DNA of 34,167 nt, taken from positions 1 through 34,167 of the forward strand of contig JAWXCN010000031.1 in assembly GCA_034408725.1 (NCBI GenBank), in the 5' to 3' direction. This stretch comes from Candidatus Hydrogenedentota bacterium. Its GTDB lineage: Bacteria > Hydrogenedentota > Hydrogenedentia > Hydrogenedentales > SLHB01. This document shows positions 2 through 24,470 of this stretch, piece by piece. A model generated the notes under the pieces. That model had not been told where the DNA came from. It was given only the letters and a program-made list of their open reading frames with translations, and searched no databases. Every line of letters starts with the position of its first letter. The stretch's first letter is position 1. The translations under genes were made by a program, and so were the position numbers.

Positions 2-2983
2 CGCCGCTACTACCAGCGCCACCGCACGATGGTCAACACTGTGGCCGCGTTTGTGCTCGCGCTGCTTGGGCTCGGGGTGTATTCATATGTGAATGTCTCC
101 AATGCGAGAAACATCGCTGTTCGCGAACACGCCCGCGCCGAGGACGAAAACTACGCCAATCAAGTGCATCTGGTCCAGTCGTACATGGGCCAGAATAACT
201 ACAAACTCGCCCGCGAAACACTCTGGGCCACCAATCCCGGCCTGCGCAATTGGGAATGGGGATACCTGCTCAATAGATGTTACCTCGAAAAGTTCACGCT
301 CGATGATTGCGTCGGCGCCGCGTACAGCCCGGACGGAACTCGCATTGCGACTATATCCCGAAATAAGCCAATCGAAATTTGGGACGCAGAAACGGGGAAG
401 AAAACCTTTGAAATAACAGAGGAAGCCGCACGAATTCGTGCGCATCGCTATTTCAACAATGGAACTAAAATCGTTGGAGCCGGCCAGGATAATATCATTC
501 GAATATGGGACACCCAGACGGGGAAGCTGCTGGTCCGCATGGTGGGTCATCGTGAGCTGGTTTCATCGTTCGATGTTGGTCCCGATAGTACCCGGCTTGT
601 GTCGACTTCAAACGACGGAAGCATAAGGGTTTGGGATTGCACGACTGGCGCCCAAATCGGCGCAATAGAGGACGTTTCAGAGGGAGCCAGTGTCGCGTAT
701 TTCAGCGCGGACGGAAAATTTCTGGTTTCCTGCGGCGCCGATCCAAATTTTGAAGGCGAAACCGAAGCGTATCGACGAGTTGTTACGATCTGGAATTCAT
801 CGGATAACTCAAAGGTCTTGTCAATCCAAGGCACAGACCCGGCATTAAGTTATGATGGACAAACACTCGCTGTGGCCGACGGCACAGACATTGTACTCGT
901 CGATGTGCCGGCTGGAACGACCCGCAAATACCGACTTCACACCGGGTTCATCAGAAGCGTTCAATTCTCTCAAAATGGTTCTCACTTGCTCACCAGTTCT
1001 GATGACAGCTTTGCGAAAATAACGGAGATTGATACAGGAAAGACCGTACTGACACTCGATCATGGGCAGTCCGTTGCGGCGGCGCGGTATAGCTCCACGA
1101 ACGAATTTATCTTAACAATGTCGCGCGATGGCGCCTTGAAGGTTTGGAATACCGCTTCTGGTAATCTGACTAACACCCTGCAGGGGCATGCGGACTATTT
1201 GTTAACGGCGGATTTCAGCCCCGATGGCAACCGTATTGTTTCCGCCGCATTCGATCAGTCCGTTAAGGTTTGGGAATCAAAAGCCTCACCCGGCCAGCGC
1301 GTTTTAGCATCCTATGAATGGCCTATTAAAAAACTTTCGACTTCGCCGGATGGACAGCTTGCGGCAATTGTTCTCGCCAATAGGACAATGGAAATACGCC
1401 GGGTAAAAGACGGAGCAATCGTCGCCGAGTTCGCCAGCTACGCCTTCAATGGTGGAATCGACGCGTCGTTCAGCCCTGACGGCAAACGTGTCGTCGCGGT
1501 ACTCGACGAGTTTACGCCGATGGTCTGGGACATTGAAACCCAACAAATAGTTTCCAAATTTACCGGGCATGATGGCGGTGTGAGGTGCGTCAGTTTTAGC
1601 CCAGACGGCGCCCATGTTCTCAGCGGCTCATGGGACAATACAGCCCGATTGTGGGATGCACAAACCGGGTTGCAAATTCGTTCGTTCACGGGACACACCG
1701 ATACGATACAAGACGTCGCGTTCAATACCGCAGGCAATCTGATTGCTACGGCGTCGGAAGACGGTACGGTTAAGTTGTGGGAAGCAGCGACCGGGCGGGA
1801 ACTCCGTACTTTCAAGTGCAAAGGCGGCGCAGTCTTCTGCGTGGCGTTCAGCAATGATGGGGCATTGCTAGCGACGTCTGGAGATCAGCAACCGGTTCGT
1901 CTCTGGGACGTTCAGAATGGAGACGAATTCAGAACAATTAACGGGCCCGAAAACGTGCGTGCCATTTCCTTCTCCAAAGACAGTTCACGGCTCTTCCTGG
2001 CGTCTCAGGTGGGAGTCCGCGTTGTATCTGCTTCCACTGGTAGTGAATTGGCGTTCGCAAACAGCTCCGACTATCTCATCGACGGTTCATTTGTAGGAGA
2101 TTCGTCATCGTTTCTTGCCGCCTCAGTTTCTGGGACCGTCTATGAGTTTACCCCGTTAAGTTGGAAATCCATGCCGCCGACCGGTTCTCGAAAGATGCTG
2201 GACAGTGAGATGCTGGCATTGATGCGCCGCGATCAAGTTGCAAACCCAATTGAACCTCCTTCAACATTTCCTGCGGTTGTAGTCGCTTCCACCCCGGAAA
2301 TCATTTCGAAAGCGCTTCTCATGCTTACGGACGCGGTCCATGGGGAGCAAAACGCGACTTTACCCGTCACTGGCGAGGTGTACAACGCCCTTGCACGGCT
2401 TTGCTTCCAACGGCACGATGAACTTGTCGCGCTAAATGGCGCGCCAATCAATTCATCTGAATTCGCCACAATGGCATCGGACTTGGCACGGAAACCCGAT
2501 GGGCCCCACGGAGTCGAATTCAAATTCAATCGTCATGGCGTTGCTCGCACATTGCAATGCCGATTGGTCGCGCCCGTCACGGAAACCATTGCTCGAAATC
2601 TAGACCGCCAACTGACACAAGAGTTCTTTTCCACTAATCAGCGCGACATGGCGCAATGGCAGCCAGAGGCTTTTATCAGGCATCAGCAATACTCATCCGA
2701 AATTGGCGCACAAACAGCAAATCCGGACTCGTTGAACGGGGTATGGATTGGTGAAAATGATAACGAACATTTTAAGGAACAATTGGCTGCCTTCGGATTA
2801 GCCACGGGAGACTGGGTAACGGCGCAGAACGCAATTCCGATTATTGACCACTCAATCTTTGAGCGCATCGGCGAAAGTTTAGTGGAAACAACTGGGAGTG
2901 ATGCTAACAAGCAACTCGTTCTGGATGTTAACCGGGGAGAATTTCAGCCCCGTAAGATCACGCTGAGGATGAATCCTGCATAG
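2..2983 (+). CDS. WD40-repeat protein, 5'-truncated. Has a TM helix, ~13-14 WD repeats and C-terminal PDZ-like segments; probably the C-terminal part of a Ser/Thr kinase-WD40 protein
   Basis: The frame is open from the window edge (RRYYQRHRT-MVNTVAAF...). Many GH...S.D.t.r.WD repeats. The 'LRNWEWGYL' motif after the TM helix is typical of kinase-WD40 proteins; the kinase domain itself is not in the window. Confidence 0.85.
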   Translation, partial: RRYYQRHRTMVNTVAAFVLALLGLGVYSYVNVSNARNIAVREHARAEDENYANQVHLVQSYMGQNNYKLARETLWATNPGLRNWEWGYLLNRCYLEKFTLDDCVGAAYSPDGTRIATISRNKPIEIWDAETGKKTFEITEEAARIRAHRYFNNGTKIVGAGQDNIIRIWDTQTGKLLVRMVGHRELVSSFDVGPDSTRLVSTSNDGSIRVWDCTTGAQIGAIEDVSEGASVAYFSADGKFLVSCGADPNFEGETEAYRRVVTIWNSSDNSKVLSIQGTDPALSYDGQTLAVADGTDIVLVDVPAGTTRKYRLHTGFIRSVQFSQNGSHLLTSSDDSFAKITEIDTGKTVLTLDHGQSVAAARYSSTNEFILTMSRDGALKVWNTASGNLTNTLQGHADYLLTADFSPDGNRIVSAAFDQSVKVWESKASPGQRVLASYEWPIKKLSTSPDGQLAAIVLANRTMEIRRVKDGAIVAEFASYAFNGGIDASFSPDGKRVVAVLDEFTPMVWDIETQQIVSKFTGHDGGVRCVSFSPDGAHVLSGSWDNTARLWDAQTGLQIRSFTGHTDTIQDVAFNTAGNLIATASEDGTVKLWEAATGRELRTFKCKGGAVFCVAFSNDGALLATSGDQQPVRLWDVQNGDEFRTINGPENVRAISFSKDSSRLFLASQVGVRVVSASTGSELAFANSSDYLIDGSFVGDSSSFLAASVSGTVYEFTPLSWKSMPPTGSRKMLDSEMLALMRRDQVANPIEPPSTFPAVVVASTPEIISKALLMLTDAVHGEQNATLPVTGEVYNALARLCFQRHDELVALNGAPINSSEFATMASDLARKPDGPHGVEFKFNRHGVARTLQCRLVAPVTETIARNLDRQLTQEFFSTNQRDMAQWQPEAFIRHQQYSSEIGAQTANPDSLNGVWIGENDNEHFKEQLAAFGLATGDWVTAQNAIPIIDHSIFERIGESLVETTGSDANKQLVLDVNRGEFQPRKITLRMNPA

Positions 2984-3029
2984 GAATTGCCATTGACAAG
3001 ATAGCGTCTGTAAAAGGAAAGGGAAATGC

Positions 3030-3860
3030 ATGGCTTATGAAATGAAATACGCAAAAGAAGCGGGGCCGAATTGCCGGCTGGCCCAGTTTATGGCGAACAA
3101 CGACGACGTTGGGCGACCTTGGACTTTGGGAGATATCTATTGTAAACCGCTACGCGACGTCTTGACGGAACTCATCGCTGCGCGGTTGAACGCTGCCAGA
3201 GACACCATAGATAAACCCCTCTCGGTGACAAAAAAATTTATTTTACCGGGATTTGCGCGAGATGCTATTGCTGCGATCAACGGCACCGATAGGCCGTGGC
3301 TGTCTCGAACAATGGAAGAGCTCATGGTCAGCCGGGAACATGTGGCCGACAATCATGACGAAGCGACCGACGGGACCTTGCTGAATGTGTTGCGGCAAAG
3401 TGGTGTGTACATCCCACTCAGCCACGTTGGAATAGCTGTCGGAGATGCAGATCGGCTGCGATACCTTTTCGGTATGCAGCCATACAATTCTTTGTCCCTA
3501 TGGGACCATCCGTTCCCCGATCCGGAAGATAACGTCCTCAAGCCTCTTAGAAGCATGACGTTTGGCAAACTATTTTGCCAAAAAGCTGCTGTCGTTGTGC
3601 AACAGGCACCGCAAACATTTTCAATTTTGCAGGTCGCGAAAGACCTGGGCGTGCTTCGCCCTAACCGTAATCGGAAACATACAGTAAACCCTCGGGGTGG
3701 CCCGCCACCGGCATTTCTCCCAGCGCCGTACGTCTTTAATCAAGGTGGAAACAGGAAATGCTGTCTGAATGGGGTGTGCAATACTGAATTGGCGCAAATG
3801 GCGGACTACTGTGAGCAGGTCTCCGGAGGGGGTTGCTCGGCCATGAGTGATCCTTGCTAA
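3030..3860 (+). CDS. Hypothetical protein, 276 aa, with a six-cysteine C-terminal tail
   Basis: Purine-rich RBS (aaggaaaggg) upstream. No recognised family. Ends KCCLNGVCNTELAQMADYCEQVSGGGCSAMSDPC. Confidence 0.7.
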   Translation: MAYEMKYAKEAGPNCRLAQFMANNDDVGRPWTLGDIYCKPLRDVLTELIAARLNAARDTIDKPLSVTKKFILPGFARDAIAAINGTDRPWLSRTMEELMVSREHVADNHDEATDGTLLNVLRQSGVYIPLSHVGIAVGDADRLRYLFGMQPYNSLSLWDHPFPDPEDNVLKPLRSMTFGKLFCQKAAVVVQQAPQTFSILQVAKDLGVLRPNRNRKHTVNPRGGPPPAFLPAPYVFNQGGNRKCCLNGVCNTELAQMADYCEQVSGGGCSAMSDPC

Positions 3861-3903
3861 AATTTTAAAATTGCGGATGCCGTACAAAGAGGATAATAAA
3901 ATC

Positions 3904-4824
3904 ATGATTCTTCCACCATACTCTGACCCTTTTTTAGAACTTTTGGCTCTTGCACCAGAACTATTTGTCCAATTTTCCGAAAGCGATAATCTGATTAAAG
4001 GCGTACATGGTCTGGGAGTCGACGTCGATGACGCAGCCCAAAAAGTATTTGTAACGTTCATGTTGGAGCCCGGCTATCCCCTAAAATCGATTCCCAAATC
4101 AGTTTCAGTGACGCTCTTGGGCGAGCAATACGATATTCCAACCTTCACAATCCAAACCCCGCTATTTACCTTTCAACAGGGCAACTGCTTCCACCAACGG
4201 CCTGTGCGAGGCGGCAATTGCATAAGCCCAACGGGTAGCGGAAGCCTGGGCACCCTTGGAGGCGTTGTAATAAGCACAACTAACGAACGACATTTAATAT
4301 CGAGCGCGCATGTTCTCGATGAATTCGGAACACATGGGATCGGGGACAGAATTTCGCAGCCAAAGAGCGGACCAGATTTTGCTACCATCGTTAAAACGGC
4401 CGCGCCGTGGACGACGCCTGCCAATAGCAAATGCGACGCCGGAATCGCTGAGGTTTACGATCCTGATATTGGTGACCCCGAAAACATAACAGACACGATC
4501 GATGGTATAGGAAAACAGGGTAATCCTGCCTCACCGGTCAAGGATATGAAAGTAAAAAAAAGTGGTGCAACTACCCTTGTAAAGTCATCCGTCATTGAAA
4601 AGATTTCACAAACGATTAATTGTGAAGGCCATACGTTTAACGATGTTTTTATCACCAAGGAGAGTATCAGTGCGAAGGGCGATAGCGGCGCATTGGTAGT
4701 AGGACCAAACAATGTGATCGTTGGAATTGTTATCGGAGGAAATGGGGAAAAGACGGTCGCATGTTCGATTATGAACGTGATCGATGCCCTTCAACTGCAA
4801 GGCTGGACATGGCAGCTTCCTTAA
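3904..4824 (+). CDS. Trypsin-like (S1/PA clan, Nal1-like) serine protease
   Basis: GTLGG motif, His (SSAHV), Asp (CDAGIA) and Ser (GDSGA). Start chosen at ATG 3904 after AGAGGA; 3847 and 3877 are alternatives. Confidence 0.85.
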   Translation: MILPPYSDPFLELLALAPELFVQFSESDNLIKGVHGLGVDVDDAAQKVFVTFMLEPGYPLKSIPKSVSVTLLGEQYDIPTFTIQTPLFTFQQGNCFHQRPVRGGNCISPTGSGSLGTLGGVVISTTNERHLISSAHVLDEFGTHGIGDRISQPKSGPDFATIVKTAAPWTTPANSKCDAGIAEVYDPDIGDPENITDTIDGIGKQGNPASPVKDMKVKKSGATTLVKSSVIEKISQTINCEGHTFNDVFITKESISAKGDSGALVVGPNNVIVGIVIGGNGEKTVACSIMNVIDALQLQGWTWQLP

Positions 4825-21314: not shown

Positions 21315-23102
21315 TTAATATTCGATCAAATACTTGCCCGTCTCGAACTCATTCGTTGTGATGATCAGTTTTGCGCGATCCCGGTCGTACGTCCAATCCA
21401 CGCCTTCTTCAAGCGACTTCATGTCCAACGAAACCCGCAATGGCGGATGAATCATGTGGATTCGCAGGATGTGGGGCTTACGTTCGCCCGAAAGTGTCAG
21501 CGTTAACTGGCTTGCCATATCCGATTCAAGCAGAGTCTTGCCTGAGCCGTCTGGATATACAAGCTCGAAGCGTGATCGCCCCTTTGGATACACGAGCCAC
21601 GTAATCGAACCTTCCGATTCGCGGTCCCCGTATCCCGTATAGTCGCGCGACACATTGAGTGGGATGAGCGCGCCATCGCGGATGAATACCGGCGCCTCCT
21701 CCAGCGGAAACGTGCGGCGGACGGATTTCGGCCCCTCAATGATTTGCAGATCATTGAACATGTAACGCCAGGTTCCCGCGGGCAATGTGACCGCGCGCAT
21801 GAGATTGTCCTCGTAGATTGGCGCGACCAGAATGTCGTCGCCAAAAAGATAGTGGTACTTCGCTTCGAGGGGACGCATGAGCGGCTCGCCGCCTTCGTGG
21901 CACGCGACGATATGCGAATACATATACGGAATCAGTTCGGTGTGAAGCCACGCGAACTTGCGCACAATTTCCCATTCGTGCTCGTTGTACTTCCACAGCG
22001 CCCTGTCGGAATGGCCACCGTTCAAAAACAGCCCGCAAAAGCAGGAAAATTGCGCCCAGCGCGCGTAAAGATTCGGAGGGATGTTTTGACCGGAGTAACC
22101 CGCGACGTCCGAACCGAGCACGTTGTACCCCATGGACGCAGTGCGCAGAATGTCCGTCAGCGCCTCCTCGATGCCCTGGCGTTCGAGCGACCACTCGTGG
22201 TCCTGATCGCCTACCCAGTTGACAGGCGATGCATCCAGTGGCGAGAACCCTTCGGGATGCGTCATCGTGTCCAGCCATTGTTTAAATTCCGTCGGTTTGA
22301 CGTCATCGTCGAGCCGCCCGAAGCGGTCCGCGGACCGCGACAAGGTGATGAACTCCGGATTCTGCGTCAGGCCGTGCTGATATTCGTCGCGATAATAGTG
22401 GTCCATGTATTGCCGCGTCGTCATCAGTCCTTCGCGCGTTTCCATGTACCAAACCGGAAGTCCGCGATAGCGCGTGCCGAAATAGGTCGCGCTATCATCC
22501 AGTTTCCAGCCATCGATCCCCCAATCGAAAACCTGCTGCTGCAATCCTCGCCACCACGTCATCGCGTCGGGGTTCGTGTAATCGATAAAACCGCCGCGGC
22601 CTTTCCACCAACCGATTTGATACCCGTCACCAGCAAGGTAATCCTTGTCGCGCGCTTCCTCGTACCAATCCTGCGAATCCTCAATGGCGGTATCTTTGCT
22701 CGCGCTGTTCACATTTGGCGTCATCCACAGCACCACGCGATAACCGCGTTCCTGTAAATCCCCAAAAAACTTTTCCGGGTTGGGATATCGCGTTTTATCA
22801 ACGGCAAAATCGTTGTACCGCGTACTCCACGGGCTGTCGATCAGGATTGTGCGCACTGGAAAATCCCGGTCTTCATAACCTTTGAGCAGTTCCAGAATCG
22901 CTTCGGAAGTATTGCCATCGTCTTCCCAAAGCCAAGGCTCCAATGCCCATGCCGGCGTCAACGGGACCGCGCCATGGCGTGAGCCATTGAACGGCATGCC
23001 CCAAAGGGGATAAACCCAGTAGAAATAGACGCCCGCCATAATCATCAGCACGAATAGGATGAATAGCTGGGCCAACCGGAAAAAGCAACCGCGTTTTTTC
23101 AT
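21315..23102 (-). CDS. Glycoside hydrolase family 31 with an N-terminal membrane anchor
   Basis: IDSPW, IDYTNP.A..WW, GIDGWKLD (nucleophile), WVGD (acid/base), GSDVAGY, YLFGDDILVAP, LPAGTW. ATG follows a GGGG RBS. Confidence 0.88.
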   Translation of the reverse strand: MKKRGCFFRLAQLFILFVLMIMAGVYFYWVYPLWGMPFNGSRHGAVPLTPAWALEPWLWEDDGNTSEAILELLKGYEDRDFPVRTILIDSPWSTRYNDFAVDKTRYPNPEKFFGDLQERGYRVVLWMTPNVNSASKDTAIEDSQDWYEEARDKDYLAGDGYQIGWWKGRGGFIDYTNPDAMTWWRGLQQQVFDWGIDGWKLDDSATYFGTRYRGLPVWYMETREGLMTTRQYMDHYYRDEYQHGLTQNPEFITLSRSADRFGRLDDDVKPTEFKQWLDTMTHPEGFSPLDASPVNWVGDQDHEWSLERQGIEEALTDILRTASMGYNVLGSDVAGYSGQNIPPNLYARWAQFSCFCGLFLNGGHSDRALWKYNEHEWEIVRKFAWLHTELIPYMYSHIVACHEGGEPLMRPLEAKYHYLFGDDILVAPIYEDNLMRAVTLPAGTWRYMFNDLQIIEGPKSVRRTFPLEEAPVFIRDGALIPLNVSRDYTGYGDRESEGSITWLVYPKGRSRFELVYPDGSGKTLLESDMASQLTLTLSGERKPHILRIHMIHPPLRVSLDMKSLEEGVDWTYDRDRAKLIITTNEFETGKYLIEY

Positions 23103-23148
23103 GTCCCCCTGATCACTCCCCTTGCGAAACTCGGTTGCCCGCACTATA

Positions 23149-24108
23149 TCAGGTATGGGAAGTGAAGTTGCGCCGTCTCGACGGGCGCCGCAAATGGAAA
23201 AAGATAGCCGCGGACAGCAGTAGCGCGACCACCCCCAACCATTGCGCGGCGGACAGCCCCAGCAATAAGACGCCGCGCTCCGGAAGCAGCCAATCCAGAG
23301 TGAGGCGAATCACGCCGTAGCCGGCCAACACAAAAGCAAACGTTTCGCCAGTCCGCTGGGACTTCCTATAAATCACTTCCGCCAGAAGCCATCCCGCCAA
23401 AGCCGCCGCAGAAACAAGCAGTGGCAACGGCAATACGGGAAGTGAACGCTCGACCTGCGCGCGGGCGACAATTTCCGGTCCGCGCGCCGCAGGCAATCCG
23501 TCTTCGACAAGGAGCTGTTCTATAATTTCGGGATGAATGGTGAGAAGTTGCGCGTGCGGCCATAAGGGTTTCGCCGAATCCTTTTCAGACCGGACGAGTC
23601 CGGCGGGAACCGGGAGCAGTTCCGCGCGATACTGATGCTCGTATGGAAGGCTTCCATAGGGGTACGTGATGCCAGGAACGGACGCGCACACGTCGCCGGC
23701 GCAACACCCGGCGAGCAAACACCCGATCTTCGCAACGGCCAGACCAAGAAACGCGGAAGGAGCCAACGCATCAACATACGTGAAAACATTGGCCCCTGTC
23801 GCGAATAGGAATACCACAAGCGCGACTGACGCGCCCAAAAGAAAAAAAGTTAGTGAACCAGGCGCGCGGTTCGCCGGAGAAAATACTTCCACGCCGCGCC
23901 CGGAGCCGATCAGCCACGCCGCGGCGCGTCCCGCAAGCCAGCCCCCTATCAACATGATTGTGGTAGCCTTCGCCAGCAATGCCGGGTCGAGCGAACGATA
24001 GCGGATACGCGGCGCGATGAAAGCCAACGCCGCCATCACGGCCAAAAACATCATTGCGGAATACGCGCTGACGTAAAAATGCCCGACAACAAAGAGGATT
24101 GGCCGCAT
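23149..24108 (-). CDS. Divergent prolipoprotein diacylglyceryl transferase (Lgt)-family protein
   Basis: M.P.LF..G....AY N-terminus, D.LAP..FLGLA..KIGCLLAGCC.G, YG..R...D. Several canonical motifs are altered (see findings). Confidence 0.75.
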   Translation of the reverse strand: MRPILFVVGHFYVSAYSAMMFLAVMAALAFIAPRIRYRSLDPALLAKATTIMLIGGWLAGRAAAWLIGSGRGVEVFSPANRAPGSLTFFLLGASVALVVFLFATGANVFTYVDALAPSAFLGLAVAKIGCLLAGCCAGDVCASVPGITYPYGSLPYEHQYRAELLPVPAGLVRSEKDSAKPLWPHAQLLTIHPEIIEQLLVEDGLPAARGPEIVARAQVERSLPVLPLPLLVSAAALAGWLLAEVIYRKSQRTGETFAFVLAGYGVIRLTLDWLLPERGVLLLGLSAAQWLGVVALLLSAAIFFHLRRPSRRRNFTSHT

Positions 24109-24152
24109 AACGGCGAAGGGCGCTTTAGACCGCTAGGCTACCTGGCGCCGAA

Positions 24153-24299
24153 TTATAAACCAATGCACTGATCGATTAAGGAAAGTCTGGCGCCTGAACC
24201 CGGACCCGCGAAGGCGATCATCGCCGGCGCAAACAATCCAACCGCCATCGCGACGGCGATTACGTACCAGATGAGCTTCGACTGTTTCAACTTGCGCAT
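24153..24299 (-). CDS. Small secreted peptide, 48 aa: MRKLKQSKLIWYVIAVAMAVGLFAPAMIAFAGPGSGARLSLIDQCIGL
   Basis: Hand-translated and absent from the ORF track, whose shortest entries are 60 aa. GGGGAG RBS before the ATG; basic N-region, hydrophobic H-region and an A-F-A signal peptidase I-like site. Confidence 0.7.
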   Translation of the reverse strand: MRKLKQSKLIWYVIAVAMAVGLFAPAMIAFAGPGSGARLSLIDQCIGL

Positions 24300-24470
24300 T
24301 TCAGTTCTCCCCAATTAATTTTCGTTAATCGTCTCGAAATTGTGCAAACGCCGCCAATTTCCCGGATTCCCGCGAAAGTATATAGTCGATATTCAGGAAA
24401 AGTAAAGCCCGAATCGATGTGTTGGATGAGCGGTTCCGGGACGTAAAAACGTTCCCAGTTGTGAGCATGA

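Follow-up and report, generated by a model that had tools for sequence, protein, structure and literature searches.

A candidate peptide-lipidation module: small cysteine peptides encoded beside a divergent Lgt-family enzyme in Candidatus Hydrogenedentota

On a 34,167-nucleotide stretch of DNA from Candidatus Hydrogenedentota bacterium (contig JAWXCN010000031.1; the whole stretch that was analysed is called the window here), a small open reading frame (sORF) for a 48-residue peptide with a signal-like leader and a single cysteine lies just upstream of the gene for a divergent member of the Lgt family, and comparison with related loci suggests that the two genes constitute a self-contained two-component module that is conserved in this phylum. 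Lgt transfers diacylglyceryl to the lipobox cysteine of prolipoproteins; the usual view is of a housekeeping enzyme with this one purpose and a requirement for the motif. We give about an even chance to the reading that, in this module, a dedicated Lgt paralog S-lipidates peptides exported by Sec, guided by their leader and independently of a lipobox. The organisation of the locus follows the gene logic of peptides that are made by the ribosome and modified after translation (RiPPs), in that the precursor adjoins its enzyme and a conserved leader is followed by a variable core with a conserved modifiable residue. Furthermore, the sole conserved partner enzyme belongs to a family that works on the periplasmic side of the membrane, where it alkylates the thiol of cysteines with diacylglycerol. 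That the paralog is dedicated to the neighbouring cysteine peptide in a RiPP-like module had been put forward in an original prediction made from the sequence of the window, and the proposal gains support from the presence of the pair at 13 of 14 distinct loci and in the same five of 135 genomes.

Pairing of the peptide and enzyme genes

The precursor-peptide gene occupies 24153..24299 on the minus strand, with its ATG at 24299-24297 and its TAA at 24155-24153, and is assigned to a peptide family marked by W-x-W, L-F-[AGV]-P and a single Cys. Its 48-residue product, read from the sequence, is MRKLKQSKLIWYVIAVAMAVGLFAPAMIAFAGPGSGARLSLIDQCIGL, which matches the profile of the family with E values of 1e-12 to 5e-13. 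A Shine-Dalgarno (SD)-like GGGGAG lies 7 nt 5' of the ATG (24307..24312, minus strand), so that the small gene and ribosome-binding site of the original prediction are borne out; the same frame appears in a program-made list of open reading frames with a TTG start at 24314 and a length of 53 aa. The prediction had also called the peptide unannotated, which holds for its name and not for the gene itself, since a gene has already been called on this sORF in a large protein collection (P0007). By comparison with its relatives the sORF is far more than a chance reading frame, because homologous ATG-start sORFs, mostly with a GGAG-like SD motif, precede orthologous enzyme genes.

Full-length orthologs of the enzyme with 39-50% identity are encoded in four other species genomes, one of which holds two copies, and between one and five same-strand sORFs of the family lie upstream of all six orthologous enzyme genes in these five species genomes. 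The arrangement recurs on a further contig (L042) and at 10 of 12 loci drawn from metagenomes (L118-L129). When duplicates are collapsed (L118 is the window itself, L119 matches G053, L126 matches L125 and L128 matches L127), 13 of the 14 distinct loci of the enzyme clade have upstream peptide genes, confirming the expectation of the original prediction that a conserved signal-peptide sORF with a Cys would precede homologous enzyme genes. The distance between the two genes ranges from 44 to ~170 nt. In the window it is 44 nt (24109..24152), as had been noted, and the spacer, on the same strand as both genes, contains no terminator-like site. The two genes are predicted to be co-transcribed. 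The junction between the 3' end of the sORF and the 5' end of the enzyme gene folds unremarkably (z 0.65; its folding is equalled or surpassed by 144 of 200 shuffles), and no SD-like motif was found within 20 nt 5' of the ATG of the enzyme gene.

Nothing else at these loci is shared in the same way. BLASTP comparison of the neighbours in the window with those at five related loci returned only the enzyme as a shared protein, plus two generic matches, and Pfam scans of 36 neighbouring proteins from 10 loci gave functions unrelated to one another, among which neither a protease nor an exporter nor a tailoring enzyme is shared; an Lsp paralog was likewise not found as a conserved neighbour. One genome, G020, contains two complete modules with different peptide cores (C6:113534-114776 and C12:76562-77772), whose enzymes are 44% and 39% identical to that of the window. 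Of the two metagenome loci that have no upstream peptide gene, L129 (match 2501-3346, 29% identity) encodes a different type of Lgt and adjoins a glutamine synthetase gene. The L129 protein is of an intermediate type, with Lys at the position of E. coli R143 and Asp at that of E243, and with HPTQLY and R246 kept.

The pairing extends to the distribution of the two genes among genomes. In a survey of 135 Hydrogenedentota species genomes (enzyme profile at E <=1e-25, peptide profile at E <=1e-4), the enzyme occurs in five and the peptide in six, namely the same five plus G016, where only ~100 nt separate the peptide gene from the contig end and the enzyme gene may simply be unassembled. Within the genus of the window the module is present in three of five species, and we therefore regard it as an accessory trait. 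A profile of the leader, run on six-frame open reading frames of 160 Lgt-family loci, matched 15, all of this clade, and none of the 145 others; the matches within the clade are in part circular, as these loci supplied the profile, and it is the negatives that are informative. On the genome of the window, the same profile picked out only two of 115,452 six-frame open reading frames at E < 0.01, the sORF described here and an orphan copy on contig C202.

Features of the peptide family and of the enzyme clade

An alignment of 18 peptides shows a common leader followed by a C-terminal part that is hypervariable apart from its Cys. The leader combines a K/R-rich start, W-x-W, a hydrophobic stretch, L-F-[A/G/V]-P and a small-x-small site, and the positions M1, W11, F23, P25 and C45 are invariant, with L22 nearly so. 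All 18 genes start with ATG, in most cases 5-10 nt after a GGAG-like SD motif. The n-region has a net positive charge (+2 to +5) in 17 of the 18, the h-region measures 13-20 aa, and a small-x-small site is found 5-7 residues past the Pro in every peptide; by these rules the leaders have the features of signals for Sec and signal peptidase I. In the window peptide the leader comprises residues 1-31 (24207..24299, minus strand), with four K/R in the n-region and a net charge of +4, a 14-aa hydrophobic h-region, L-F-A-P and then A-F-A, 7 residues after the Pro, which is the predicted cleavage site under the small-x-small rule.

The core of the window peptide consists of residues 32-48 (17 aa; 24156..24206, minus strand) and contains the proposed modification site, C45, encoded by the TGC at 24165..24167. 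Every one of the 18 family cores contains Cys, single in 17 and as two adjacent residues in one; the total of 19 among 370 residues (5.1%) compares with a Cys content of 1.34% in the long open reading frames of the genome. In the window peptide it is the sole Cys and the 4th residue from the C terminus. A lipobox would read [LVI][ASTVI][GAS]C directly after the h-region; here the Cys follows I-D-Q and lies 14 residues past the A-F-A site, so that its description as a lone Cys outside a lipobox stands. The suggestion that its position is CaaX-like does not carry over to the family. Between 1 and 14 residues follow the Cys in the 18 peptides, with no conserved residues flanking it, and a tail of three residues, placing the Cys exactly 4th from the end, occurs in the window peptide only (1/18); CaaX-like spacing is therefore no family trait, and a CaaX-type C-terminal lipidation signal was rejected as a family feature.

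Codon changes also speak for a genuine coding frame, as pairs of close homologues differ by more synonymous than non-synonymous ones (6:2 and 12:4). Some cores recur as subfamilies, for example those ending in YTWLPECLE or WWIHPCCI or carrying R-C-P. Among 5.8 billion clustered proteins only 10 relatives were found, all of 47-77 aa and unnamed or labelled 'hypothetical'. A search for longer or fused forms returned none, which is weak evidence, though in line with the view that the sORF was not left over from some longer protein. Pfam and NCBIfam gave nothing significant for the window peptide, and its best score in the Protein Atlas, 0.79, is below any useful level, with no structure on record there. 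Peptide genes also occur in tandem and as orphans: five tandem copies are present in G001 and four at L121, and orphan genes far from any Lgt gene are found once in the genome of the window and four times in G002. The orphan in the genome of the window (locus L212; G000:C202:10541-10720, minus strand) encodes 59 aa with one Cys, 7 residues from the end, and is flanked by a MotB/OmpA-like gene on one side and a convergent gene on the other.

The enzyme gene (23149..24108, minus strand) encodes a 319-aa membrane protein that was assigned to its family by Pfam, alignments and a tree, and the original placing of an Lgt-family gene immediately downstream of the peptide is correct. The protein matches Pfam LGT (PF01790) with 62.6 bits (cut-off 24.9), residues 3-304 covering positions 1-239 of the 240 in the model. 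Its scores against the NCBIfam equivalogs lie far below their cut-offs (29.7 bits against 118.9 for TIGR00544, and 66.8 against 334 for NF000778, the latter over the N-terminal half only), so that the window enzyme falls outside the equivalogs of the housekeeping lgt. Judged by homology, the enzyme is a member of the Lgt Pfam family other than the housekeeping Lgt. The canonical gene is found elsewhere in the same genome (G000, 92% complete in 280 contigs) at C182:39292-40101, where it scores 210.7 bits against LGT, with the window copy at 61.7 bits in the same genome search. A canonical lgt copy of 197-218 bits accompanies the paralog in all five carrier genomes, bearing out the expectation that the window gene would not be the only lgt, and Lsp is present in the four carrier genomes tested for it, a set that leaves aside G053.

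The clade to which the enzyme belongs, which we call T1, is rare and separate. A profile built from six orthologs and run against 1.84 billion representative proteins retrieved 15 proteins at 238-474 bits, followed by a gap down to 150 bits, where a further group begins whose Lgts have the ordinary motifs and contain a long insert on the periplasmic side. In a maximum-likelihood tree of 54 sequences (quick search), the 16 clade members are separated from the rest by a long branch (length 1.29) with a Shimodaira-Hasegawa-like approximate likelihood ratio (SH-aLRT) support of 100. We aligned the enzyme with E. coli Lgt (PDB 5azb; see also 5azc) and with the canonical Lgt of the host; together with the Pfam match, the alignment to 5azb is the basis for its membership of the Lgt fold. 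The membrane-protein scaffold is alignable with that of E. coli Lgt, and Y26, G154, Y235 and R239 of the latter are kept in the clade as Y16, G138, Y264 and R268, respectively. N146 and E151 are replaced by Cys, as they are in the canonical Lgt of the host and in other distant Lgts. Across the 16 sequences K127, C130, G134, C135, C136, G138, R268 and D272 are invariant.

Proposed mechanism and competing explanations

The anatomy of precursor and enzyme leads us to propose a sequence of steps by which lipidation might take place. The peptide would be exported by Sec and inserted with its N terminus in and its C terminus out, so that the variable tail with the Cys faces the periplasm. The membrane-embedded leader, made up of W-x-W, the hydrophobic helix and the L-F-[A/G/V]-P hinge, would then be recognised by the dedicated Lgt paralog, which would place a lipid on the thiol of the lone conserved Cys with no need for a lipobox. 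As for E. coli Lgt, the lipid would be accepted by the thiol of a Cys in an exported polypeptide with an N-terminal hydrophobic leader, and the donated group would most likely be diacylglyceryl from a membrane phospholipid. Housekeeping signal peptidase I would probably cut the leader at the small-x-small site afterwards, leaving a short peptide (17 aa in the window) that is tethered to the membrane through the lipidated Cys near its C terminus. The additional precursor genes, whether in tandem or elsewhere in the genome, could supply further substrates. The mature peptide might act as a signal, a surface tag or an antagonistic peptide.

We are somewhat less confident in the broader proposal that this is the first RiPP-like class defined by a neofunctionalised Lgt, one that would recognise a conserved in-membrane leader in place of a lipobox and attach a lipid by a thioether to a Cys that is internal or C-proximal in mini-peptides exported by Sec. 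If true, the Lgt fold would be re-targetable by leader sequence, and Hydrogenedentota would possess families of C-terminally lipid-anchored, hypervariable peptides for surface or signalling functions. It would also represent a new lipidation route for ribosomal peptide natural products, in which the enzyme/leader pair might be used to lipidate chosen peptides, and a first functional handle on the accessory envelope biology of an uncultured phylum.

Several observations weigh against lipidation by the paralog, some of which concern its active site. One study lists Y26, H103, R143, N146, G154 and R239 as absolutely required in E. coli Lgt (PMC13251419). In the clade, R143 is replaced by Lys (K127) in all 16 members, the H103GGL motif has lost its Gly pair and is unrecognisable, and N146 is the Cys noted above; in addition, the HPTQLY-type motif has become W-P-x-P, E243 is Asp (D272) and R246 is lost. 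With R143, the Gly pair, R246 and HPTQLY lost or changed, the canonical reaction may be altered or lost. Within the clade the changes are fixed or almost fixed, and the region is therefore remodelled yet under selection, which speaks for an altered catalytic activity and not for decay. The substrate differs as well: the Cys of a lipobox abuts the signal peptide, whereas the Cys of these peptides lies ~5-36 residues beyond the predicted end of the leader and 1-14 from the C terminus, and no motif around it is conserved. At the 10 loci scanned, the conserved surroundings of the module include neither a dedicated protease nor a dedicated exporter. One distinct clade locus, L122, has no peptide gene, its enzyme gene being 5'-truncated with foreign sequence upstream, and in the subfamily ending in YTWLPECLE conservation is stronger in the core than in the leader, which would also fit a role as a sequence-specific ligand. 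Finally, the sample amounts to ~14 distinct loci, all from uncultured organisms, and the related genomes among them are not independent.

The alternative that survives best, which we nevertheless consider unlikely, is that the peptide is a small single-pass membrane protein serving as a regulatory or structural subunit of the Lgt-like enzyme, with the Cys used for a disulfide or a contact. Small membrane proteins are known to modulate membrane enzymes and sensors, as MgrB does with PhoQ and PmrR with LpxT. The strict adjacency and co-occurrence of the two genes would be expected of such a subunit, as would the transmembrane segment being the most conserved part in most peptides, which fits an in-membrane interface, and the peptide genes have good SD motifs where the enzyme gene of the window has none. 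However, tandem arrays of up to five divergent copies, together with orphans, are unusual for a stoichiometric subunit. The small-x-small site of signal-peptidase type that follows the helix-breaking Pro in 18 of 18 peptides predicts that the membrane segment is lost, and an invariant lone Cys within a hypervariable tail resembles a modification site.

Less probable still is that the peptides are exported by Sec and act unlipidated, as signals or antagonists of a pheromone or bacteriocin-like kind, while the Lgt-like protein, possibly a pseudo-enzyme, serves as receptor, confers immunity or takes part in their processing. The hypervariable cores, the several paralogous precursors per genome and the patchy distribution (5/135 genomes, 3/5 species of the genus) do resemble diversifying peptide systems, the core subfamilies are conserved in sequence, and several canonical catalytic residues of the enzyme are changed. 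Against this, W11, F23 and P25 are invariant across loci whose enzymes are only 35-50% identical, whereas Sec signal peptides need no sequence conservation; the strong conservation of the active-site region in the 16 clade sequences argues for catalysis; and a single Cys is untypical of disulfide-stabilised bacteriocins.

In the SecM-secA and MifM-yidC2 pairs, a small open reading frame with an export signal lies directly upstream of the gene for a membrane-biogenesis factor, and the sORF could by analogy be a monitoring upstream open reading frame that arrests during translation, thereby sensing the biogenesis of membranes or lipoproteins and controlling translation of the downstream paralog. 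This layout, and the missing SD motif of the enzyme gene, notwithstanding, we disfavour the idea as highly improbable, and membership of the SecM/MifM type was rejected, given hypervariable C-terminal parts with no conserved arrest motif and only the Cys conserved, a junction that folds no better than its shuffles, spacing to the enzyme gene that varies over more than 100 nt, and tandem and orphan copies, the latter far from any Lgt gene.

Relation to described systems and genomic surroundings

The module would combine two known kinds of chemistry and logic, Lgt-type lipidation of a Cys and leader-guided modification of a peptide, with the function of the combination predicted from sequence. 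The closest described system is that of the DAG-RiPPs (PNAS 2026, PMC13056109), which are ribosomal peptides with a signal peptide that are S-diacylglyceryl-modified on a conserved Cys. The lipid-peptide hybrid logic is thus common to both. As described there, however, DAG-RiPPs employ the ordinary Lgt/Lsp/Lnt pathway of the host and a canonical lipobox, the Cys becomes N-terminal and the class-defining enzyme is an MNIO (PMC13056109). The present peptides have no lipobox, and the dedicated Lgt paralog is their only conserved partner; no MNIO or shared tailoring gene was found among the neighbours in the window and at 10 related loci, which sets the module apart from the DAG-RiPPs.

Extra Lgt copies with altered essential residues have been described before. 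PMC13251419 reports second Lgt homologs in actinobacteria, such as MSMEG_5408 of M. smegmatis, as well as a divergent Lgt subgroup without R143/R239, and its authors suggest that divergent Lgts with altered essential residues may use another acyl substrate or mechanism. The present clade is similar in being an additional copy with such alterations, but differs from that subgroup in keeping R239, in having Lys at 143 and in being defined by its upstream peptide genes; a cognate small-peptide partner for the second or divergent Lgts is not mentioned in the text of that article available to us. A full-text literature search, from which many subscription papers and supplements were out of reach, returned no paper in which an Lgt paralog is described together with small peptides of its own, in agreement with the earlier remark that the module was not recognised from described systems.

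Lipidated peptide pheromones offer a more distant parallel. ComX of Bacillus is isoprenylated on a Trp by ComQ, and the fungal a-factor undergoes CaaX-type farnesylation, both through prenyltransferases that modify the peptide in the cytoplasm. In common with these, the module has a short peptide of ribosomal origin, in which the leader is conserved and the core varies, and an adjacent, membrane-associated enzyme that would be a dedicated transferase; the proposed lipid on a Cys near the C terminus would be a further likeness to a-factor. The enzyme families differ, however, as does the residue modified in ComX, and the Cys is in a CaaX position in just one of the 18 peptides.

A resemblance to TatA/TatE is confined to the leader. 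Four of the 18 peptides, including L125:2142-2354 and L123:2177-2326, give weak partial matches to TatA_B_E (18-22 bits, cut-off 21; model positions 2 to 20-33 of 53), which reflect a short helix with a W before it and F-G-P at its end; the window peptide has no such match. The amphipathic helix in the rest of the 53-position model is not matched and a segment of the K-K-L-P type is absent. Moreover, the positive charges lie before the helix and not after it in 17 of the 18 peptides, implying a topology opposite to that of TatA/TatE. Membership of this family was therefore rejected.

In the window, a promoter-like site (TTTACT, an 18-nt spacer and TATACT; 24377..24406, minus strand) lies 5' of the sORF, inside the 171-nt gap that follows the preceding membrane-protein gene; it is a match to the consensus and carries no evidence of function, one such site having been found against a shuffle mean of 0.9. 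Upstream of the module, on the minus strand between 24471 and 27335, are genes for a regulator of the GntR family (27335-26907), an ABC ATPase (26923-26006) and a multi-pass membrane protein of 558 aa (26147-24471), the last of which has no match in Pfam, NCBIfam or PADLOC. This trio is absent beside the module at other loci and is therefore not part of it. PADLOC gave no match for the peptide or the enzyme and only generic ATPase matches for the ABC ATPase. The gene 3' of the enzyme gene encodes a GH31 glycosidase on the same strand after a short gap (window 23102-23149) and could be co-transcribed with the module, although it is not conserved beside it at other loci; its listed start is a GTG at 23144, and an ATG at ~23102 preceded by GGGGGA is the more plausible one. 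With a GC content of 0.55-0.60 the module is similar to its flanks, and no signal of a genomic island was found. The six sequencing runs listed for this DNA all consist of DNA from microbial-mat metagenomes. At L123, a gene for an IS200-like transposase (Y1_Tnp; 3615-4280, minus strand) lies just 3' of the enzyme gene; taken with the patchy distribution, this is a hint of mobility of the module.

Another Lgt-family paralog, in which the GR.GC motif is kept, is present in relatives at L221 (G002:C105:2500-8500) and L222 (G001:C2:44000-50000). It is encoded immediately downstream of, and overlapping with, a gene for a ~455-aa radical SAM protein, whose best NCBIfam matches are TrsS and the tetraether lipid synthase Tes, both below cut-off. 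The two genes may constitute a lipid-modifying pair.

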